Source: a phage. Taken from it: a stretch of DNA of 64,000 nt. The position numbers and the translations under genes were made by a program. Location of the stretch: assembly GCA_025611195.1 (NCBI GenBank), contig GCA_025611195.1_4718.2. One strand, given 5' to 3'. Below, piece after piece: positions 22,027 through 43,963 of this stretch. The first letter of the stretch is position 1. Each line of letters starts with the position of its first letter. Below the pieces are notes generated by a model. The model saw only the letters and a list, made by a program, of their open reading frames with translations, did no database searches and was not told the origin of the DNA.

Positions 22027-23613
22027 TTAGAAGTTGCCTTTGGTAGTTACCGCATCCACCAGGTTAAACAAATCAACACTCAGCTTGTAAACCTCCTGCT
22101 GGCTACGGTTGAGCAGTGGGCTGTACGCGGACGGGTTGATGTTCGGCATGGTGTACGGAATCGGTGAAGAGCCGTCAACGCTGATCTTGAACTGGCTGTC
22201 CAGGAACAGGTTGATTGCGCCACTCACCATAACCGCGTTCGGGTTGTTACCCAACATGGAGGGCAGGATATTGGTAATCATGTCAGAGCGCATCTGTTCA
22301 GCAGCGCGGTTACAATCATACCCTTTAATGAACGGTACAGCGTCAGTAACCGCAACCGCCCATTGCCCAGGCATGATACCTAGTTCTGGATGGCCGTGGT
22401 TATCAGCAATGAAACGGAACGATTCCAACATGCGATACGTCATCGCAGCAGGCATCATCGCAGCAAGCGACGAACAGTACAATGTTGGGTAATCGATAAC
22501 GTCCCAGCTCTGGCTATCGGTCGGCATCCAGCCAAACTCAGTGGTTGCTGATGTACCGCGACGAGCTTCCACATACGGGAATAACGTTAATACGTCACGG
22601 ATATGTTCGCCGAACATCCGTTTCATGTCTACCCAACTCATGCTACCGCTGAAGGCGAATCCCTCATCACGCATGATCGCACCGAATACCGGATGTGCAA
22701 CCAACGGTTCTTCACGAACAGCTTGAGCTGCTTCTACGTAAATATCCTCATTCTCTGCGCTACCTGGATGAGACCCGCTTTCGTACGTCTGACGAATAGC
22801 CCCGACGTTATCGAAGGCTTTTCTTAGATAGATGGTTGGGATGTTCGTATCAGCACTCGCTGGTTTGATTTTCTCCGTTGCGAAACACATTGCTGCTTCC
22901 ACACCACGAAAAACCGGTTCCGGTTGCGATTGATAGGAAGAGCGATGGACCACATCAGCGTAGGCTGGATCGAACTGCTGCATCACGTTCTGCATGGCTG
23001 GGTCCATGAACTGGTTATCAAAACCACCATTGCCTACCCAACGTGCTGTCGACGCATAAGTCAGCGTATCCTGAACACGAGTACTGAACTGAACATCACG
23101 ATTAACAGGGTCGTATGCGCCAGTCAAAAGGTTCGTTGCGTCCATCGGGGTCGCGCGAACGATTTGCTTACCGAACATATCCGTTGTGGTTGTTTCGGTT
23201 ACCTGGATTACATTCGTGAAGAAGAACACCAGTTCGTTCGGTAGATCGATAGAACGCGTTGTAAACGCATCGAGGCTTACCGAATGGTCGGTGTATCCAG
23301 AAATGTAATGGACGCGCTTGGTTCCTGGTGCAAGGGCCAAGGATTCTTCCACAGCCATCATGAAATGGAAACGACGTGTGCCCCAACCATTCGCAATCTC
23401 CGAAACCCCCTCAGGTTCTGCAGACTGCTGTAACAAACCGGTTGCAAGCTTATTGATTGCTGATGGGGTTGTTGCCGTACCGAACTTCGTCGTGTTAATA
23501 AAGTCTTCGATGCTACGCATGCTATCTGCATGGAATCGTAGTGGACGACGTTGTACGTTGTTGTACGGTGCGGTTTCAACCATCAGTATTTCACGAACAT
23601 TCATCGGGATCAT
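22027..23613 (-). CDS. hypothetical protein (528 aa)
   Basis: Long ORF, 2-nt gap to upstream gene. Confidence 0.6.
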   Translation of the reverse strand: MIPMNVREILMVETAPYNNVQRRPLRFHADSMRSIEDFINTTKFGTATTPSAINKLATGLLQQSAEPEGVSEIANGWGTRRFHFMMAVEESLALAPGTKRVHYISGYTDHSVSLDAFTTRSIDLPNELVFFFTNVIQVTETTTTDMFGKQIVRATPMDATNLLTGAYDPVNRDVQFSTRVQDTLTYASTARWVGNGGFDNQFMDPAMQNVMQQFDPAYADVVHRSSYQSQPEPVFRGVEAAMCFATEKIKPASADTNIPTIYLRKAFDNVGAIRQTYESGSHPGSAENEDIYVEAAQAVREEPLVAHPVFGAIMRDEGFAFSGSMSWVDMKRMFGEHIRDVLTLFPYVEARRGTSATTEFGWMPTDSQSWDVIDYPTLYCSSLAAMMPAAMTYRMLESFRFIADNHGHPELGIMPGQWAVAVTDAVPFIKGYDCNRAAEQMRSDMITNILPSMLGNNPNAVMVSGAINLFLDSQFKISVDGSSPIPYTMPNINPSAYSPLLNRSQQEVYKLSVDLFNLVDAVTTKGNF

Positions 23614-23614
23614 T

Positions 23615-25201
23615 TTATTTTTTTCCTCTTAAATTTACTACATGTTCATTTAATCGAACAACTAATTGCACAAGCTGCTGACGGATATCTGCTGGACAAA
23701 GCATCAATCCTTTACGATCAGCTGGGACTTTCTCAAGGATTTCCGGACCTGCTGCGGAAACATCCCAATCCCATTCACAAAACGCATCAGCCACCATGTT
23801 AATACCGACAACCGGTAAAGTTGTACGTTCATCTTCATACATGGCATGCGGATACAATTTATTGACGGTAATGACCTCCTGTGGTTTTAACTGATGGATA
23901 ATCTGGTAAACGTCGTCGCGTTTAACCTGGATACCTACGGTCAGCGCAGCCAGTTGAGGAAAACCCCAATGGTCTAATAAACACGCTGCGATCGCTAACG
24001 CTTTTGCCTGATGTACGGCTTCAATCGGTGATAGACTTCTCGCTGGAAGATGGCTATCAAGCAACCATTGTGCCAATGCTCGGCATCCACGGTTGATTGG
24101 TTTTAACTCAACGCTGTCATCATGTTTAGCGTAGGTGTATCCGTCGTAACGTTTTGCGATACGCGCATACATGTCTTCAACTTTACCGTAAGGTGCCGTT
24201 TCATCGATGTCGTGCAGCACCCGTTCCATCTGGGTAAGATACGCGATGTCGAGAATGAGTACGCGCGGTGAACGTTTATCTTTCACCATCAACGCATCGA
24301 TCACGCCTTGGCTATCTTCGTCTTGCGCGTTCCCTCGCGGGGTTTTCTCGCGAATCGGTCCGCTGAAACGTCGTTCCGTACAAAGGTTATTCACATAGCT
24401 AAAGATCAACGTTACCAGGTGCGTACAACTTACCAACACCCCATCTTTAACGACAGGCTGTACGGCTTGGTCCAAATCGCGTACTGCGAGACGGCGAACG
24501 ATGGCTTGTGAACGCAACCAACCGGGTACTTTCTCCGTCGACATGTAATCCACTGTCATCGACAGCGTGATCTTTTTATCACCTGTCTGCGCACGGATAT
24601 AATCTTCCAGTCGGTCGTAAGCAGCGATATCATGAATGCGTGTTTTATACATTAACGACATAGCTACTTCTTCTTTACGTACCGTCCCGTACGTTTTCCC
24701 TGCGTCAATCAGAAACTCCGCCCAAATCGGCACCATCAGACGGACGTAGATCGCTAACGCCGTTAACTCAACGTAATCATTTCGTAAATAGGTTTTCTCG
24801 GGTATATCATCCTCACCTAATGTTGTTTTCATGTCCGGCGGTAATTTTACCCAACCTGGGGTATTACACAACGCCAGAATCTCTTCATACACAACCGGTT
24901 TGTAAATTTCACCAACAGCGCGGCTCAACTCCTCCATTTGTTGTTGTGGAGCAATGTAGTTATCCATCGCTTCACGTGCTTTAACGAACCCTTCGAAGAT
25001 GTCGTCGATTCGACGTGGGTTCTTTTGTTCTATCCAGGCGAGATACTTGTTAATCTCCCGCATCTGATTGCTAGCCATATCCCCATCAATCTTGATGTAA
25101 CCCTGGCCTGAAAATTCCACGGTACGTCCGTCACGATGTTTGATGAGATAGTGATCCAGCTTTTCTTTGCCTTGCGTCGTAATGACGGGCACTATGTGCA
25201 T
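23615..25201 (-). CDS. hypothetical protein (528 aa)
   Basis: Long ORF preceded by promoter-like motif at 25294-25313. Confidence 0.6.
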   Translation of the reverse strand: MHIVPVITTQGKEKLDHYLIKHRDGRTVEFSGQGYIKIDGDMASNQMREINKYLAWIEQKNPRRIDDIFEGFVKAREAMDNYIAPQQQMEELSRAVGEIYKPVVYEEILALCNTPGWVKLPPDMKTTLGEDDIPEKTYLRNDYVELTALAIYVRLMVPIWAEFLIDAGKTYGTVRKEEVAMSLMYKTRIHDIAAYDRLEDYIRAQTGDKKITLSMTVDYMSTEKVPGWLRSQAIVRRLAVRDLDQAVQPVVKDGVLVSCTHLVTLIFSYVNNLCTERRFSGPIREKTPRGNAQDEDSQGVIDALMVKDKRSPRVLILDIAYLTQMERVLHDIDETAPYGKVEDMYARIAKRYDGYTYAKHDDSVELKPINRGCRALAQWLLDSHLPARSLSPIEAVHQAKALAIAACLLDHWGFPQLAALTVGIQVKRDDVYQIIHQLKPQEVITVNKLYPHAMYEDERTTLPVVGINMVADAFCEWDWDVSAAGPEILEKVPADRKGLMLCPADIRQQLVQLVVRLNEHVVNLRGKK

Positions 25202-25293
25202 AACAACCTCTTTTCGCGGTTCCCTGTTAAAACGTCTTCGGCGACGTCTACCACAAAGGTAACATTTATGTCGCCTCTATGACTTTGTTCATA

Positions 25294-25313
25294 GAGGTAA
25301 TATAAGCGTGAAT
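25294..25313 (-). promoter_or_regulatory. promoter-like motif, minus-strand ATTCACGCTTATATTACCTC
   Basis: Same consensus; about 95 nt upstream of gene start 25201; abuts hairpin 25274-25297. Confidence 0.45.
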
Positions 25314-25443
25314 AATTTTGGATTCCGGCTGAGTTATCGCTCAGCATGCAAGGCATCCCGCCGAAGCGAGACACCTTGCACTAACGGAAGATATTCGCGT
25401 TACCTTCTGAGTCTTCGATTCAGAATGCGAAGCTGAAGCATTA

Positions 25444-26232
25444 TTAGAACGCTAAGCCATCAAAGGCTACCGACGGATCATCGTCGTCATTTGCGCTTGG
25501 TGCATCCCAACGGGTATCTGGGGCTGCTGGAGCCGAACGCGATGCGTTAGAGTTACCGTTGTACTGGCCGTTACCAGCATTACGGTTACCGCCGCCGTTA
25601 TTGTTGTTACGATTATAGCTATTATTGCCATTGCTTACGCTACGGCTTTCACCATCGAAATTGGTCGCGAGGATGCTTGGCAACACCGCACGATGAATAC
25701 GTACGAATTCCAGCGCGCAAAGCGGTGAAACAACCCCGATCTGTAAAGGTTGTCCAGACTCATCAACCAAAGAGTGGAAACGTGGCGGCTTGAATACGAA
25801 CTGGATGTTCGGTTTTTGGTACGCAGTTACGGCGATATATACCGAACCATCATCATTCTTACCAACCCATGTTGTACTTTCGGTAATCTGTTTCTTCTTA
25901 CCTGGGTTATTGCGATCATCAATAACCTTTTCGTTCTTCATCGCAAAGCGTTGACCTGGTTTACCCTTAGCAACCTGCTCGAGGATCGCAAGCAGGTTAT
26001 AGAACGCATATGAACTCATGCGTGCCCAAATGCTTTCAGCGCGACCCTGCTGGTCCTTACGACCTGTATAAACCGTGATACGCGGTTGATTCTTAGCAAC
26101 GCTAATTTTCAATGAGGGGACTGAATTGCCGCCCTCAACTTTTTCGTCCGCCCACAGTTTCCAGTTGTTGTCGTCGTAAGCCGTAGGAATAATGTTTCCT
26201 TGTGGTTTACTGCCCGAATTCCAATTGCTCAT
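25444..26232 (-). CDS. SSB-like protein candidate
   Basis: C-terminal N/G-rich low-complexity linker followed by acidic tip DDDDPSVAFDGLAF, the architecture of SSB tails. Confidence 0.3.
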   Translation of the reverse strand: MSNWNSGSKPQGNIIPTAYDDNNWKLWADEKVEGGNSVPSLKISVAKNQPRITVYTGRKDQQGRAESIWARMSSYAFYNLLAILEQVAKGKPGQRFAMKNEKVIDDRNNPGKKKQITESTTWVGKNDDGSVYIAVTAYQKPNIQFVFKPPRFHSLVDESGQPLQIGVVSPLCALEFVRIHRAVLPSILATNFDGESRSVSNGNNSYNRNNNNGGGNRNAGNGQYNGNSNASRSAPAAPDTRWDAPSANDDDDPSVAFDGLAF

Positions 26233-26305: not shown

Positions 26306-27103
26306 TCAGCGGAACATGTCCAACAGAAAACGTTTTGCGAAGGGGTCGCGTAACTGGTTGACGCCAAAGCGTGTACGGTCTTCCGTTGTTAACGGATTCC
26401 ACTGACTCTGTTTCGCAAGATCTAACAGCATCCTTTTTATTTTCACCGGCCCGCTGTTAAACTGTACGGCTTGGTCGCCGAACGTTCCCAATGTCATCTT
26501 TGTAAATGGGAGGTTCGCAACCTCTGGACGATCTCCACCAGTAAGTTTGGTCGACCACTGATGTTTTCGTTTCAAAGTTCCGGTATGACTCTCTACCAAA
26601 ATAAGTTCACCAAAACCGGTTCTTGCCAACAAGTCAGAAACATAGTGCGTAGTGATATACGACGTTTTGGTTATCGTGGGTAATTTACAATCCATCGATT
26701 CGATATTGGGGAGTCGATCTACAGACGCCATCAACCCACGATAAAGTGTGGCGAGTCCTTTTTGTTTTTCGGTGTGTGGCTCCTTGTGTATAGCGTGCGG
26801 ATAAACACGCTTTATTGACGCATAGGTTGGCGCATATATCCGCAAACGAATATGGGGAACGAGTTCATTCACCAACTGCCTTAGCTGCAGCAACTCGTTT
26901 TGAAAATCCCCCGTTATCATCGATAATGGTAATTTATGCTGTTCGACGTCTTCAAAGCTTTCAACAAAATTGCGCGCTAAAGTACGCAGGTTGAACAACC
27001 AATCCATCGGCGTTTCTGGCTGTTGCTGCACGGCTGATAATGTTGCTGACGTCCCCACCGATAAAGGATAATCACCTAACGTGCGGGCGTACATATCGCT
27101 CAT
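26306..27103 (-). CDS. hypothetical protein (265 aa)
   Basis: ATG at 27103 with AAGGAG RBS; track start 27139 would overlap the upstream gene. Confidence 0.55.
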   Translation of the reverse strand: MSDMYARTLGDYPLSVGTSATLSAVQQQPETPMDWLFNLRTLARNFVESFEDVEQHKLPLSMITGDFQNELLQLRQLVNELVPHIRLRIYAPTYASIKRVYPHAIHKEPHTEKQKGLATLYRGLMASVDRLPNIESMDCKLPTITKTSYITTHYVSDLLARTGFGELILVESHTGTLKRKHQWSTKLTGGDRPEVANLPFTKMTLGTFGDQAVQFNSGPVKIKRMLLDLAKQSQWNPLTTEDRTRFGVNQLRDPFAKRFLLDMFR

Positions 27104-27122
27104 ACCCCACAACTCCTTCTTA

Positions 27123-28265
27123 TCATGGCAACGTATCAAGCCAAGCAGAAACCTTTAAGGCATCAACGTTCGGGTATTTATTACGGATGCGTTCGACCAG
27201 CAAACGCTTAACGTTGTCCTTTGTCAAGTCCCCGCCTTTCTCGATAACGTTATTGACAAAACTGTTCTTTAATAACGACTGGTTGTTCTTGGCGTCCGTT
27301 TTAATTGTCCAGATAAAACCTGGATACAAAGAAGGGATAGAACGAAACGTTTTCGCTGCGTCGTCTTCCTTATCACAACGTATTCGGATGTGATCGCCCT
27401 TCTTCAATGAAGCCAATTCCCGTTCCAATACACGAATGATTTCATCTCCAACAAGACCGTGCAGTTTTATCGTCTTGTAGACATCTGCTTTCTTGTTCTC
27501 AACAAATTCCCATTGGTCGTTAAACGATTCTGTTAACGTATAACGGAGGTACCCCTTTGGACCTTCTTCGCCATGCGACAAGCGACCGAACGAACCGCCA
27601 ACCATGATACGTCCTTTCTGGGATTGTAAGTGGATATGCCCACTCACGACCCACCCTTGGGTCTTCTCTACCATTGCGTTATACGCATCGCTGCTATGAA
27701 CACATGTCGCTTTTAACGCTTCTGGTGGAAGCTGATATTCAAACGCGCCGTGCATCAGAATGAAGTCCGGCGATCCCTTCTCATCAATAAGTCGGTTCAC
27801 AGCCGACAACGTCACATCCGGATCGTGGCTGTAGTTATCTGGAAGATAGAGCACTTTTAAACCAAAGTCTTCATCAACCATGCAGAGATCATCGTAATAA
27901 CGAACTTTCGCTCCTATCTCCATGACCTCGTTCTGTTCAACGAACCACTGGCTTTGCTTCTGGTCATGTAAATTGGTACCTTCAAGAAAGATCAACGTAA
28001 TATCGTGTTTTCTCGCATACCGTAACAACCAGGTACCCCAGGCACGAACAGCAACCACGTCACTCGTTACAAATGTCGTAATACGATCGAAGACATCACC
28101 ACTGAATGTAATCACGTCAAGCAGCGCAGGATCTTCTTTTGTGATATAATAACGTAGCTGGCTAATCAGATTCACTGTCGGTGTTTGACGATGGATAAAG
28201 TGAATATCCGACAAGTTGATTCCTCGTAATACCCCAGGCGTTTTATTTCGACTGAAGTCTCGCAT
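27123..28265 (-). CDS. Mre11/SbcD-like nuclease (calcineurin-like phosphoesterase)
   Basis: Ordered motifs NLSDIHF, SGDVFD, EGTNLHD, MHGAFE, SGHIH match metallophosphoesterase motifs I-V. Confidence 0.55.
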   Translation of the reverse strand: MRDFSRNKTPGVLRGINLSDIHFIHRQTPTVNLISQLRYYITKEDPALLDVITFSGDVFDRITTFVTSDVVAVRAWGTWLLRYARKHDITLIFLEGTNLHDQKQSQWFVEQNEVMEIGAKVRYYDDLCMVDEDFGLKVLYLPDNYSHDPDVTLSAVNRLIDEKGSPDFILMHGAFEYQLPPEALKATCVHSSDAYNAMVEKTQGWVVSGHIHLQSQKGRIMVGGSFGRLSHGEEGPKGYLRYTLTESFNDQWEFVENKKADVYKTIKLHGLVGDEIIRVLERELASLKKGDHIRIRCDKEDDAAKTFRSIPSLYPGFIWTIKTDAKNNQSLLKNSFVNNVIEKGGDLTKDNVKRLLVERIRNKYPNVDALKVSAWLDTLP

Positions 28266-41001: not shown

Positions 41002-41523
41002 TTATTTAAAAATGTATTCATACCCGAAAGTCGTCGCCGACCAGACCCGGATAGATGATAGTGTTCCACCACGATAAAACGTTTTTGTGAACTCCATATC
41101 CTGGACAACACGATAATAAACACGTCCGATAATACGCACGATAAGATATCGTGATAACGATCTCTCCTCGCAGTACTCATCGATAAAGTCATCGTCGATA
41201 TCTGATAAGACAACGTCTGCGATTTCTTGCAGTAGATTCCTCATCAGCATCTGCCTTCCTTCGGTACCCCACCCAGACAAACAGTAGTCGTCTTCTGCTT
41301 GACTATAGATGTCGTTAACCGCCTGTTCGAGCAGTTGCTCAAGATAGTAGTCATCGCGCTTTATAACGTGGCGACGGCGCTCAGAGGCGTATTTTTCCAT
41401 CCTGTGTTTCTCTTGTTCGGCGTATGTATTAACGACGCCACAGTCTTTTCTGGATCGTCCCACAATGCGCGACGAAAACTGGATACTACCATAACGGTAG
41501 GATAGATTTGTACGACCTCCCAC
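41002..41523 (-). CDS. hypothetical protein (start uncertain, possibly 41400)
   Basis: ORF track; overlaps upstream ORF by about 160 nt unless an internal start is used. Confidence 0.4.
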   Translation of the reverse strand: MGGRTNLSYRYGSIQFSSRIVGRSRKDCGVVNTYAEQEKHRMEKYASERRRHVIKRDDYYLEQLLEQAVNDIYSQAEDDYCLSGWGTEGRQMLMRNLLQEIADVVLSDIDDDFIDEYCEERSLSRYLIVRIIGRVYYRVVQDMEFTKTFYRGGTLSSIRVWSATTFGYEYIFK

Positions 41524-41849
41524 CCGTAACGATGTGTGTTAGTCGTACGTCCGACATTGAACAGACATAACTGATTTAAGAAACAGAGCTGTATCTTTGT
41601 AAACAACACTGTGTCTTCACGTTTAACGTATCCGAGGATATAGGCATTCTCGAACGCCTCGCGTGACAAGACGGGGCGATTAAGGTACCGCAACGCTAAT
41701 ACCAGCAACGTTGTTATACGCAACGGATCTTCTGGGTCATTCATGGTGCTCAGCTCTGCTTGTAACCAGTCGGGGATAGTAACCGTCAGACGATAGGTAT
41801 CTGTTCCACGATCAACCACATTCAACGTTGAAAAAGGCAACATATCCAT
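41361..41849 (-). CDS. hypothetical protein (162 aa)
   Basis: ORF track; part of a chain of overlapping minus-strand ORFs. Confidence 0.45.
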   Translation of the reverse strand: MDMLPFSTLNVVDRGTDTYRLTVTIPDWLQAELSTMNDPEDPLRITTLLVLALRYLNRPVLSREAFENAYILGYVKREDTVLFTKIQLCFLNQLCLFNVGRTTNTHRYGWEVVQIYPTVMVVSSFRRALWDDPEKTVASLIHTPNKRNTGWKNTPLSAVATL

Positions 41850-42387
41850 GAATTCCTTCTATCTCGAGGTTGTTCTCGCAGGTCTTGGGTAATAACCCAC
41901 TGGCCGTTAACATCTGTGTCATCGAGTAATCAAAGCACGGAAATATAAGGTTAACGGTTTCCTGGATCGCGTCAACATAACTATAAATGGCTTCATAATA
42001 CTCACCATCATGATCTACGCTAACCAGTTCCTGACACAGTTCTTCGCTTATCATTTCATATACCGGCGGATACCACGATTGAAATGGTCGCTGCATACGT
42101 AACGACCAGTACTCGTACGTCGTATACTGAAGCACGTCATAAGCCGATACGTTAATGCGGTCGAAGAAAGCATACTTGTCCATATGCTGATACAACATCG
42201 CCAGTACGGTTTCCAAGCACACCGATATCCGCACGCCACCATCTTTCCCGTTAAGAAAATTAGGTTTCTGCCGATAACGCACAAATGCCGACGGCTTTGA
42301 TTGTATTATTCCACCACCAACCATAACGTCATACTCGTATCTAACGTAAAATTGAAATGCCACCAATCTTCTACACGTGGGATCCAC
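41812..42387 (-). CDS. hypothetical protein (start possibly 42324)
   Basis: ORF track; part of overlapping chain. Confidence 0.45.
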   Translation of the reverse strand: MDPTCRRLVAFQFYVRYEYDVMVGGGIIQSKPSAFVRYRQKPNFLNGKDGGVRISVCLETVLAMLYQHMDKYAFFDRINVSAYDVLQYTTYEYWSLRMQRPFQSWYPPVYEMISEELCQELVSVDHDGEYYEAIYSYVDAIQETVNLIFPCFDYSMTQMLTASGLLPKTCENNLEIEGIHGYVAFFNVECG

Positions 42388-42791
42388 GTACGAAGAATCT
42401 GGTTAACTTCGCTTCGCATCACCGATAAACGACAACGAAAGTCGAACTTCTCATCATGACCGTAGTCTTCATGCATGAAAACTTCGTCCAAAACGAACTC
42501 AAGTTGCGTGTCTACATCACGACCGGAGATATTTCGTTTGTACAGATACAGTTCAATCGTGTCATAAAGCAACGTATGAATATCATAATTTCCGTTCGGC
42601 GAGAAATAAGGTAATCGCTCATCGAACATCGAAAACAGATATTCACTGTAGTTTAATAACGGGATGATGTACCGACGTCCGGTCTGTGGTGTGCGAATAT
42701 GTATCGAAACCTGACTTGGACGCGGAATAGCCGACGGCTTAGAATCGTCTCTCTGAAATTGCTCTAAAGATCGCAACAAAGGTGGCCGCAT
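42306..42791 (-). CDS. hypothetical protein (161 aa)
   Basis: ATG start confirmed at 42791; overlaps upstream ORF by 53 nt. Confidence 0.45.
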   Translation of the reverse strand: MRPPLLRSLEQFQRDDSKPSAIPRPSQVSIHIRTPQTGRRYIIPLLNYSEYLFSMFDERLPYFSPNGNYDIHTLLYDTIELYLYKRNISGRDVDTQLEFVLDEVFMHEDYGHDEKFDFRCRLSVMRSEVNQILRTWIPRVEDWWHFNFTLDTSMTLWLVVE

Positions 42792-43368
42792 TGTAACTCT
42801 CCAACGCCCAATTGTAAGGCCCTTCTAACATGTGTTCCCATACGTGAATAAACTCACTACCGAAGACAGGCTCCAGCGCCATGGTGAGATTCGTAAGTTC
42901 TGACGCGGCCGCATGGTAAGCATCAACGTGTCTTTCCATTGACGGATCGTCTTCATTGAAAATACGTTCTGTGTCGCCAGCCCGTTCAATAAGTTCGGTA
43001 ATGAGATCTGTCCATGTTTCGTGGCACGTCATCATTTCCTGTTCTCGACTTAGTATTCCGATGTCTGCGTGTACGCTGGACTCGAACCGGTCGAAAAGGA
43101 CCCGAAGAACATGCACCTTGTCGATGTATCTCACCGTTATCCAAGAAAGCGGTTGCCATCGACTCAGCGTCCATCCGGTACTCGGGAACCCCAAACTCAT
43201 ATAGTACGGGTTGCACGGGACCGAAGACGGAGCGACGCTGTTTAAATCGTTCCTTAATGGCAATGCCCTGTTTAATGTAAATGGGTTCATTGGCGAGTCG
43301 TTTCGCTTTTTGTTTTGCGTGAGCCAATCGAAGTTCTTCCAATTGCCCAAGCCATTCAAATTGTTCAT
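42739..43368 (-). CDS. hypothetical protein (start uncertain)
   Basis: ORF track; N-terminal 126 codons overlap the preceding ORF in another frame. Confidence 0.4.
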   Translation of the reverse strand: MNNLNGLGNWKNFDWLTQNKKRNDSPMNPFTLNRALPLRNDLNSVAPSSVPCNPYYMSLGFPSTGWTLSRWQPLSWITVRYIDKVHVLRVLFDRFESSVHADIGILSREQEMMTCHETWTDLITELIERAGDTERIFNEDDPSMERHVDAYHAAASELTNLTMALEPVFGSEFIHVWEHMLEGPYNWALESYNAATFVAIFRAISERRF

Positions 43369-43963
43369 CTGTTAGCTCCTGGGGACGTTCAACAATCGCG
43401 CCAGACGGGCAGACATTGATCGTGATGTTAATTGATGGCATCGCCATCACTTGAGGGTTGCTATTACGTACGCGGACAACATGTTCGGTTGCTGATTTAC
43501 GATCAACGCAATACTCTGTTTCTTGGAACTCAAATGCTTTTAACGGCGTTGGTTTTGTTTGACGTTTCTTAACACGACCAAGATCAACAATATAGGCATA
43601 ATCACAAACACGTTCTATTCCGTAAATACGGTTATCCGACCAGTTCTTACCAAACAGCTTGTTGTGATGATAAGACAAATATTCGGTTACCATACCCTGA
43701 ACAACATCGAAGTCTTCTCGAAAATCAGGTTGATACCAAATCGGACCGAGAATATCTGCGAACGATTCATGACGATATCGAGGATCATGTCGAGTCCAGG
43801 GCATTCTCTGATTAAGATCGAAATCCACCAACAATTCCGTTAATTGCAGTTTTTCCTTCGGAGAAAGCTGGCGTTGATGATGCAAACTCAAGCAATCGAT
43901 AAGTGGTAATGAAACCCACGATGCTAATGTGTACAAATCGATCCTGGCTAGTCTCTTGGTCAT
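42986..43963 (-). CDS. hypothetical protein (325 aa)
   Basis: ORF track; Arg-rich C-terminal 40 aa looks atypical, possible frameshift into next ORF. Confidence 0.45.
   Translation of the reverse strand: MTKRLARIDLYTLASWVSLPLIDCLSLHHQRQLSPKEKLQLTELLVDFDLNQRMPWTRHDPRYRHESFADILGPIWYQPDFREDFDVVQGMVTEYLSYHHNKLFGKNWSDNRIYGIERVCDYAYIVDLGRVKKRQTKPTPLKAFEFQETEYCVDRKSATEHVVRVRNSNPQVMAMPSINITINVCPSGAIVERPQELTDEQFEWLGQLEELRLAHAKQKAKRLANEPIYIKQGIAIKERFKQRRSVFGPVQPVLYEFGVPEYRMDAESMATAFLDNGEIHRQGACSSGPFRPVRVQRTRRHRNTKSRTGNDDVPRNMDRSHYRTY

Follow-up and report, generated by a model that had tools for sequence, protein, structure and literature searches.

What protein ends in an SSB-like tail and yet starts with a folded domain too long for an SSB? 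This question is raised by one open reading frame on the minus strand of a 64,000-nucleotide stretch of phage DNA, referred to here as the window. [quoted passage not shown] The answer that we favour has several parts. The reading frame is identified by homology as chmC (also named imp6) of a Goslar-like nucleus-forming jumbo phage (Chimalliviridae), its product would form a tetramer of Whirly-type subunits with a tail built like that of SSB, and the tips of these tails would act by docking. We give this joint explanation a probability of about 0.88. Since chmC is a characterised core gene of nucleus-forming jumbo phages, the locus does not represent a new kind of system; the family-wide identity of the tip with that of SSB may bear on the way in which ChmC/Imp6, at the shell of the phage nucleus, connects the handling of RNA with the import of proteins and the replication of the genome.

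The open reading frame and its tail

The reading frame is complete, running for 262 codons from an ATG at 26232 to a stop at 25444-25446, and the plus-strand frame of the same interval has many stops. The protein ends in ...SANDDDDPSVAFDGLAF before the stop codon, so that the terminal sequence quoted in the initial annotation (...NASRSAPAAPDTRWDAPSANDDDDPSVAFDGLAF) agrees letter for letter. Its description of an N/G-rich low-complexity linker was likewise accurate: asparagine and glycine make up 44% of residues 199-246 (14 N and 7 G among the 48) vs 14% of residues 1-198. Residues 1-198 carry a net charge of +7, the final 16 residues one of -5. Of the 96 reading frames in the window that start with Met and have 80 aa or more, chmC is the only one that combines a tail free of basic residues, at least five acidic residues, and a hydrophobic last residue. 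The features of the locus are collected in Table 1.

Table 1. Features of the chmC locus, with positions in the window.
Feature	Position	Strand	Basis
SbcD-like nuclease, orthologue of phiKZ gp65 / PhiPA3 gp59	27123..28265	-	phrog_100, E 3e-41; phiKZ/PhiPA3 annotations
Conserved protein of unknown function, orthologue of PhiPA3 gp60 / phiKZ gp66	26306..27139	-	BLASTP 31% identity, E 2e-33; phrog_3229
chmC (imp6) coding sequence, 262 aa + stop	25444..26232	-	ORF, homology, pN/pS ~0.03
Residues 1-198, predicted Whirly/PUR-like nucleic-acid-binding domain	25639..26232	-	
Residues 199-246, disordered Asn/Gly-rich linker, SSB-linker-like in composition	25495..25638	-	44% N+G, pLDDT <50
Residues 247-262, acidic tip with hydrophobic end, ANDDDDPSVAFDGLAF	25447..25494	-	sequence, Goslar comparison
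nvRNAP (non-virion RNA polymerase) subunit, orthologue of PhiPA3 gp62 / phiKZ gp68	23615..25201	-	BLASTP 24% identity, E 6e-34
PicA/Imp1 nuclear-shell import factor, orthologue of PhiPA3 gp63 / phiKZ gp69	22027..23613	-	BLASTP 23% identity, full length, E 2e-23

Identity as ChmC/Imp6

The encoded protein shares 98.5% amino-acid identity, at equal length, with gp176 of Escherichia phage Goslar, from which it differs by four substitutions (V38I, S154A, R232S, and P235S), and the DNA is 95.3% identical to that of Goslar over 12 kb, which identifies the source of the window as a close relative of this phage. Between the two genes, 42 codon differences are synonymous and 4 are non-synonymous (pN/pS ~0.03), with 3 synonymous and 0 non-synonymous changes in the last 16 codons; this scarcity of non-synonymous changes, and their absence from the tip, points to purifying selection on the whole reading frame, tail included. 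More distant relatives are found by tblastn in PhiPA3 (061) and phiKZ (PHIKZ067), with 27-32% identity over residues 22-199 (E 5e-8 to 3e-11), and matches across the phiKZ-like jumbo phages, 201phi2-1 gp123 among them, show 27-34% identity over the same residues. Goslar gp176, PhiPA3 gp61, phiKZ gp67, and 201phi2-1 gp123 are thus assigned as orthologues. General-purpose databases say less about the protein. PHROGs places it in phrog_3284, a group of unknown function (E 1e-35), a Pfam search up to E 10 returned no match, the SSB family included, and a sequence search of the PDB returned no significant one.

The first three of these orthologues were named ChmC by Enustun et al. 2024 (PMC11077065), and phiKZ gp67 was named Imp6 in a later preprint (bioRxiv 10.1101/2024.03.27.586873). 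The window protein shares with the ChmC/Imp6 proteins of Chimalliviridae the Whirly-like domain, the N/G-rich linker, the acidic end, and the gene neighbourhood. The order of the genes matches that of phiKZ gp65-69 and PhiPA3 gp59-63, and this conserved order places the gene for PicA, the known physical partner of ChmC, two genes downstream of chmC. PhiPA3 gp63 and phiKZ gp69 are named as PicA in Table 1 of PMC12571901, and PhiPA3 gp62 and phiKZ gp68, the orthologues of the nvRNAP subunit encoded in between, are listed in the literature as 'sigma factor'.

A side observation concerns the host. The closest database cluster (P0001, 263 aa, 145 member sequences) is 98% identical to the window protein, carries the NCBI label of a hypothetical protein from Salmonella enterica serovar Schwarzengrund, and sits on a 241-kb contig. 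The presence of Goslar-like genomes inside Salmonella assemblies suggests a host range, or a carrier state, beyond E. coli.

Published roles of ChmC/Imp6

The gene is not new: it has been characterised by experiment in the same phage species. The functional data used here are those published for the PhiPA3, phiKZ, and Goslar proteins, the last of which is only four amino acids away from the window protein. ChmC has a Whirly/PUR fold as predicted by AlphaFold, and forms homotetramers by SEC-MALS (PMC11077065). The PhiPA3 protein binds a 22-mer ssRNA with a Kd of 58 nM and the same sequence as ssDNA with a Kd of 184 nM, so that the basic face of the protein binds ssDNA about three-fold more weakly than ssRNA, and binding is abolished in Kmut and Rmut, two multi-site mutants of basic residues (PMC11077065). 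In infected cells, ChmC is abundant, made early, located on or within the shell of the phage nucleus, and bound to phage mRNAs as detected by eCLIP (PMC11077065).

Its C-terminal 50-70 residues are disordered and comprise an N/G-rich part and an S/D/E-rich part, the latter taken by the authors as an 'electronegative cluster' (PMC11077065). Together with RNA, ChmC forms condensates, which are abolished upon deletion of the tail, even though the tail-deleted protein keeps its tetramers and its RNA binding (PMC11077065). Upon knockdown of Goslar gp176 with dCas13d, plaquing efficiency falls to about 4%, maturation of the nucleus is halted at small nuclei, phage protein levels go down, and mRNA builds up in the nucleus (PMC11077065). 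Rmut does not rescue this knockdown and gives a punctum without DNA, and the tail-deleted protein (deltaC) supports growth of the nucleus without rescuing the titre (PMC11077065). In phiKZ, an antisense screen scored gene 067 as important, knockdown of gp67 being deleterious. The phiKZ gp67 (Imp6) forms a stable complex with Imp1/PicA (gp69) at an estimated 2:1 ratio (bioRxiv 10.1101/2024.03.27.586873). In reviews, ChmC/Imp6 is presented as a factor that likely exports mRNA and has a share in import as well.

A predicted Whirly-like domain

The fold of the window protein was modelled with AlphaFold2 from an alignment of 81 sequences. Confidence is high for about residues 20-190 (pLDDT >90) and low for residues 197-252 (pLDDT <50), a division that agrees well with the folded part of about 190 aa followed by a tail in the initial annotation. 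The model has two repeats. The first consists of strands 40-46, 49-59, and 65-71 followed by a helix (74-89), and the second of strands 95-105, 113-125, 131-136, and 143-146 followed by a helix (165-190). This tandem beta-beta-beta(-beta)-alpha topology has no five-stranded barrel, and it shows the two repeats of beta-sheet plus helix that characterise the Whirly/PUR type. With the disordered, N/G-rich, and acidic tail that follows, the protein has the architecture of ChmC.

The top structural matches of the model are plant Whirly proteins, which are ssDNA binders, and no SSB or other OB-fold protein is found among the best 60 structural matches listed. Against viral models, Foldseek returned only uncharacterised jumbo-phage proteins, evidently orthologues. 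The likeness lies in the fold: the Pfam Whirly profile does not match the window protein, and sequence identity to plant Whirly proteins (PBF-2 p24/StWhy1, StWhy2), trypanosome MRP1/MRP2, and Pur-alpha is 9-11%. The ChmC repeats are three- to four-stranded, the topology being described as beta-beta-beta-alpha in PMC11077065. Residues R35, R44, and R63, mutated in the PhiPA3 Rmut, align with K42, R51, and R71 of the window protein, and the residues mutated in Kmut do not align with basic residues in it.

According to this model, in which an OB fold is absent and a Whirly-like one is predicted, the 'oversized' domain would be a different single-strand-binding fold. The domain is indeed longer than a single OB fold, as had been noticed, and the predicted fold is another one. 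Of the two properties on which the SSB reading had been made to depend, an OB fold is absent from the model and ssDNA binding has been shown for the PhiPA3 orthologue.

The C-terminal tip across the family

Two sets of tails were compared. The first comprised the best 120 of 359 homologues from a profile search. Aspartate stands at -5 in 80 of them and at -4 in 100, leucine or isoleucine at -3 in 92, proline at -2 in 102, and phenylalanine or tryptophan at -1 in 113. The second set came from a HMMER search of 1.84 billion cluster representatives, which found 1,328 members of the ChmC family (1,129 at E <= 1e-10); from the best 150 of these 1,328, 142 new and non-redundant representatives (50% identity) were taken. 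Their modal residues from -8 to -1 read D-F-D-D-D-I-P-F. The ending [ILMFVY]-P-[FWYLM] is present in 120 of the 142, with proline at -2 in 124 and F/W/M/Y at -1 in 134, and the stricter ending [DE][DE][ILMFV]P[FW] in 67, vs a chance expectation of ~1e-5, a rough estimate from typical residue frequencies. The terminus of E. coli SSB reads ...PPMDFDDDIPF (PDB 1eqq/4mz9), and its last eight residues are the consensus of the ChmC family, DFDDDIPF. The SSB-like tail recognised in the initial annotation is borne out more strongly than could be seen from one sequence, at the level of the family only. In SSB itself, the C-terminal hexapeptide is described in PMC5872125 as a conserved partner-binding motif, and the C-terminal peptide contacts at least 18 proteins as well as the OB fold of SSB (PMC7584906).

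Tips of named phages follow this pattern with slight changes and include GFDDEIPNF in PhiPA3, GFDDSIPDF in PA1C, AFDEDMPSF in phiKZ, DFADDLPF in RAY, AFDTDIPF in pEa_SNUABM_54, GSEDLPF in FLC9, and SFDTDVPM in AgentSmith. More diverged tips are found in 201phi2-1 and Viktualia (...SFDW), in a Vibrio phage (...STGW), and in the Goslar clade. These variants cluster by lineage: most members have I-P-F or L-P-F, one group has I-P-W, another L-L-F, phiKZ, PhiPA3, and PA1C have P-x-F, and 201phi2-1 and Viktualia have S-F-D-W. As a separate observation, gp286 of Erwinia phage pEa_SNUABM_54 (470 aa; L006 140-1552) has an extra N-terminal region of ~190 aa before the Whirly-like domain, as do the family members P0073 (480 aa), P0189 (466), P0258 (420), and P0235 (404), and the SSB-type tip is retained in the N-terminally extended gp286 and P0073.

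The family-wide identity of the ChmC tip with the SSB C-terminal peptide appears to be unreported in the searchable literature, and we regard it as a modest lead. The term SSB is never used in the ChmC paper (PMC11077065), and full-text searches of the searchable literature found no paper connecting the ChmC tail with SSB.

The resemblance is confined to the tip. When the tails of the 120 homologues were aligned locally to the E. coli SSB tail, the median z was 2.76 for the tails, 1.87 for the reversed tails, and 1.76 for the linkers without their tips. The order-specific SSB signal is thus carried by the tip only, and the likeness of the linkers, whose lengths vary and whose composition includes 32% G and 13% N, is compositional; homology of the linker to SSB was dropped because the linker alone scores no better than the reversed control. 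The window tail is collinear with that of E. coli SSB and shares with it the hexapeptide SAPAAP (score 60 vs 30.6 +/- 5.9 for shuffles, a value reached by 1 of 2000), an identity that is probably due to chance since Goslar has SASAAP.

Acquisition of the tail from a host ssb gene was rejected, as no match was obtained when the DNA that encodes the tail was compared by blastn with 5,426 E. coli genomes. A 24-column profile of the family tail gave 0 matches among all PDB sequences, a result that says little given so short a profile of low complexity. An NCBIfam scan of 10 family members gave three weak, non-significant tail-to-tail matches to NF004972 (E 0.16-4), suggestive at most, covering C-terminal positions 115-166 of the 166 in this full-length SSB model.

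The diverged tip of the Goslar clade

The window protein and Goslar share the tip DDDDPSVAFDGLAF, which differs from the family consensus DFDDDIPF, and two clade relatives at 63-64% identity carry the tip DDDDDDAAPAFQGLPL. In a MAFFT alignment, the DDDDP and the final F of the window protein align with the DDDIP-F of the family, with eight residues inserted between them. The tip then reads DDDD-PSV-AFDGLAF, with L-A-F in the place of the canonical I-P-F, A replacing P. We classify the acidic tip of the window protein as a form, particular to the Goslar clade, of the C-terminal peptide of SSB type that the family carries. Since it lacks the canonical I-P-F, docking of the SSB type may be weakened or retargeted in this clade. 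The same tip was considered as a sliding-clamp-binding motif, a candidate that was set aside because its pattern does not seem to fit the consensus for such motifs.

Proposed mechanism of the tail

In the mechanism that we propose, the four tips of a ChmC tetramer would be short docking motifs, as in SSB. The tips could bind back to neighbouring tetramers, on the basic face that holds nucleic acid, which would create multivalent contacts, condensates, and competition with nucleic acid. Alternatively or additionally, they could dock into pockets on partner proteins. The linker would provide reach and weak self-association. That the terminal hydrophobic-Pro-Phe is kept beside a freely varying linker leads us to infer docking into a pocket rather than a mere need for negative charge, and docking on ChmC's own basic face would explain the tail-dependent condensates as in E. 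coli SSB, whose condensation depends on the linker and on contacts between the C-terminal peptide and the OB fold (PMC7584906).

The second reading of the initial annotation, recruitment of partners through an SSB-like tail, is possible. In its favour, phiKZ Imp6 does bind Imp1/PicA directly; against it, C-terminally FLAG-tagged gp67 apparently still bound Imp1, in a preprint whose tag naming is inconsistent (bioRxiv 10.1101/2024.03.27.586873). The contact with Imp1 therefore probably needs no free C-terminus.

Bacterial SSB offers a close comparison. Like the ChmC orthologue it is a homotetramer that binds single-stranded nucleic acid, it has a Gly-rich linker of variable length, and both proteins form tail-dependent condensates (PMC7584906 for SSB, PMC11077065 for ChmC). 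Contrary to SSB, which has an OB fold, ChmC is Whirly/PUR-like and RNA-preferring, with a domain of no detectable sequence homology to that of SSB, and the DFDDDIPF tip of SSB is degenerate in the window protein.

Some phages have abundant SSBs with an acidic, aromatic-ended C-terminal tail that serves partner contacts and self-regulation, such as T7 gp2.5 and T4 gp32. These are OB-fold proteins with ssDNA as their ligand, and their tails are not known to be of the bacterial DDDIPF type.

A stronger version of the docking mechanism, which we put forward as a tentative idea, is that the ChmC tip is a working copy of the SSB tip, ChmC being a Whirly-fold analogue of SSB that plugs into the pockets that bind SSB tips. 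If true, ChmC could recruit host or phage enzymes able to bind the SSB tip, or import them via the PicA complex; it could be the missing single-strand-binding hub of the phage nucleus, and the diverged tip of the Goslar clade, which infects E. coli and Salmonella, would be a retargeted version. Docking on SSB-interacting proteins would give the phage nucleus a route to host or phage DNA-metabolism enzymes, and could account for the lack of a described classical SSB in such phages. If the tip docks only back onto ChmC, the formation of condensates would be explained as it is for E. coli SSB.

Alternative explanations

The alternative that survives best, which is the published view of the acidic segment, is that the tail drives phase separation by its low complexity and carries no more than an unspecific acidic cluster, its likeness to SSB having no docking function. 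The loss of condensates, and not of RNA binding, in deltaC agrees with such a tail, and this published deletion removes tip and linker together (PMC11077065). The linker similarity that is no better than its reversed-sequence control and the missing DNA-level trace of ssb in the E. coli genomes point in the same direction, and the tips of the Goslar clade, 201phi2-1, and the Vibrio phage depart from the consensus, from which it can be argued that the exact motif is dispensable. A generic acidic cluster does not, however, account for a proline at -2 in 124 and an F/W/M/Y at -1 in 134 of the 142 representatives next to a freely varying linker, nor for the strict ending in 67 of them at a chance of ~1e-5, and the same peptide is a specific docking motif in SSB (PMC7584906). 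We therefore treat the generic tail as possible and doubtful, and retain docking through the tip as part of the preferred reading.

A further alternative, that ChmC serves the phage nucleus as its functional SSB in replication or recombination, possibly besides its role with RNA, is unlikely in our judgement. On this view, a tetramer of Whirly fold would coat ssDNA and bring in enzymes of replication and repair through its SSB-type tip. It would fit a tetrameric orthologue with a Kd of 184 nM for ssDNA, which is among the most abundant early proteins, whose best structural matches, the plant Whirly proteins, bind ssDNA, and whose family tip is DFDDDIPF. The small nuclei upon knockdown, the punctum without DNA in Rmut, and the position of chmC near the gene of an SbcD-like nuclease would also suit a role in DNA metabolism. 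Moreover, group 2 jumbo phages typically have a classic OB-fold SSB, which is unlisted for the phiKZ group (PMC7824862), and the core-genome paper mentions no SSB, although the absence of another SSB then rests solely on the silence of papers. Against this role stand the three-fold preference for RNA and the binding of mRNA in cells, the accumulation of mRNA in the nucleus upon knockdown, the location of PhiPA3 ChmC on the shell and not throughout the DNA, and the non-canonical tip of the window protein.

Finally, the divergent OB-fold phage SSB of the initial annotation, for which the tail architecture and the ssDNA binding of the orthologue speak and nothing else, has practically no chance of being correct and was rejected, given a confident model with beta-beta-beta-alpha repeats of Whirly type, no five-stranded barrel, and no OB-fold protein among the best 60 structural matches listed, together with the negative Pfam SSB and PDB sequence searches.

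Other features of the window

The spacer between the chmC stop codon and the next gene (242 nt, 25202-25443, minus strand) is unusually long. Its predicted folding energy is -88.3 kcal/mol vs -61.3 +/- 4.2 kcal/mol for shuffled sequences (z = -6.4, with 0 of 200 shuffles as good), and it contains a 16-bp hairpin with a UUCG tetraloop. Over ~100 nt in its centre, the spacer is 100% identical to that of Goslar, where the chmC gene itself is 94% identical, and a 38-nt insertion that is not in Goslar makes its own 9-bp hairpin. The spacer may act as a terminator or as a site of RNA processing, or may give rise to a small RNA; it has no Rfam match, and Rfam and tRNA scans of the window found no RNA genes.

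The mechanical list of reading frames has a series with strong overlaps at 41002-43963 (minus strand), which was set aside, as Goslar annotates ordinary short adjacent genes there (gp237-243), which sit between the genes for DNA polymerase (gp244) and PhuZ (gp234). The overlaps arise from extended upstream start codons.
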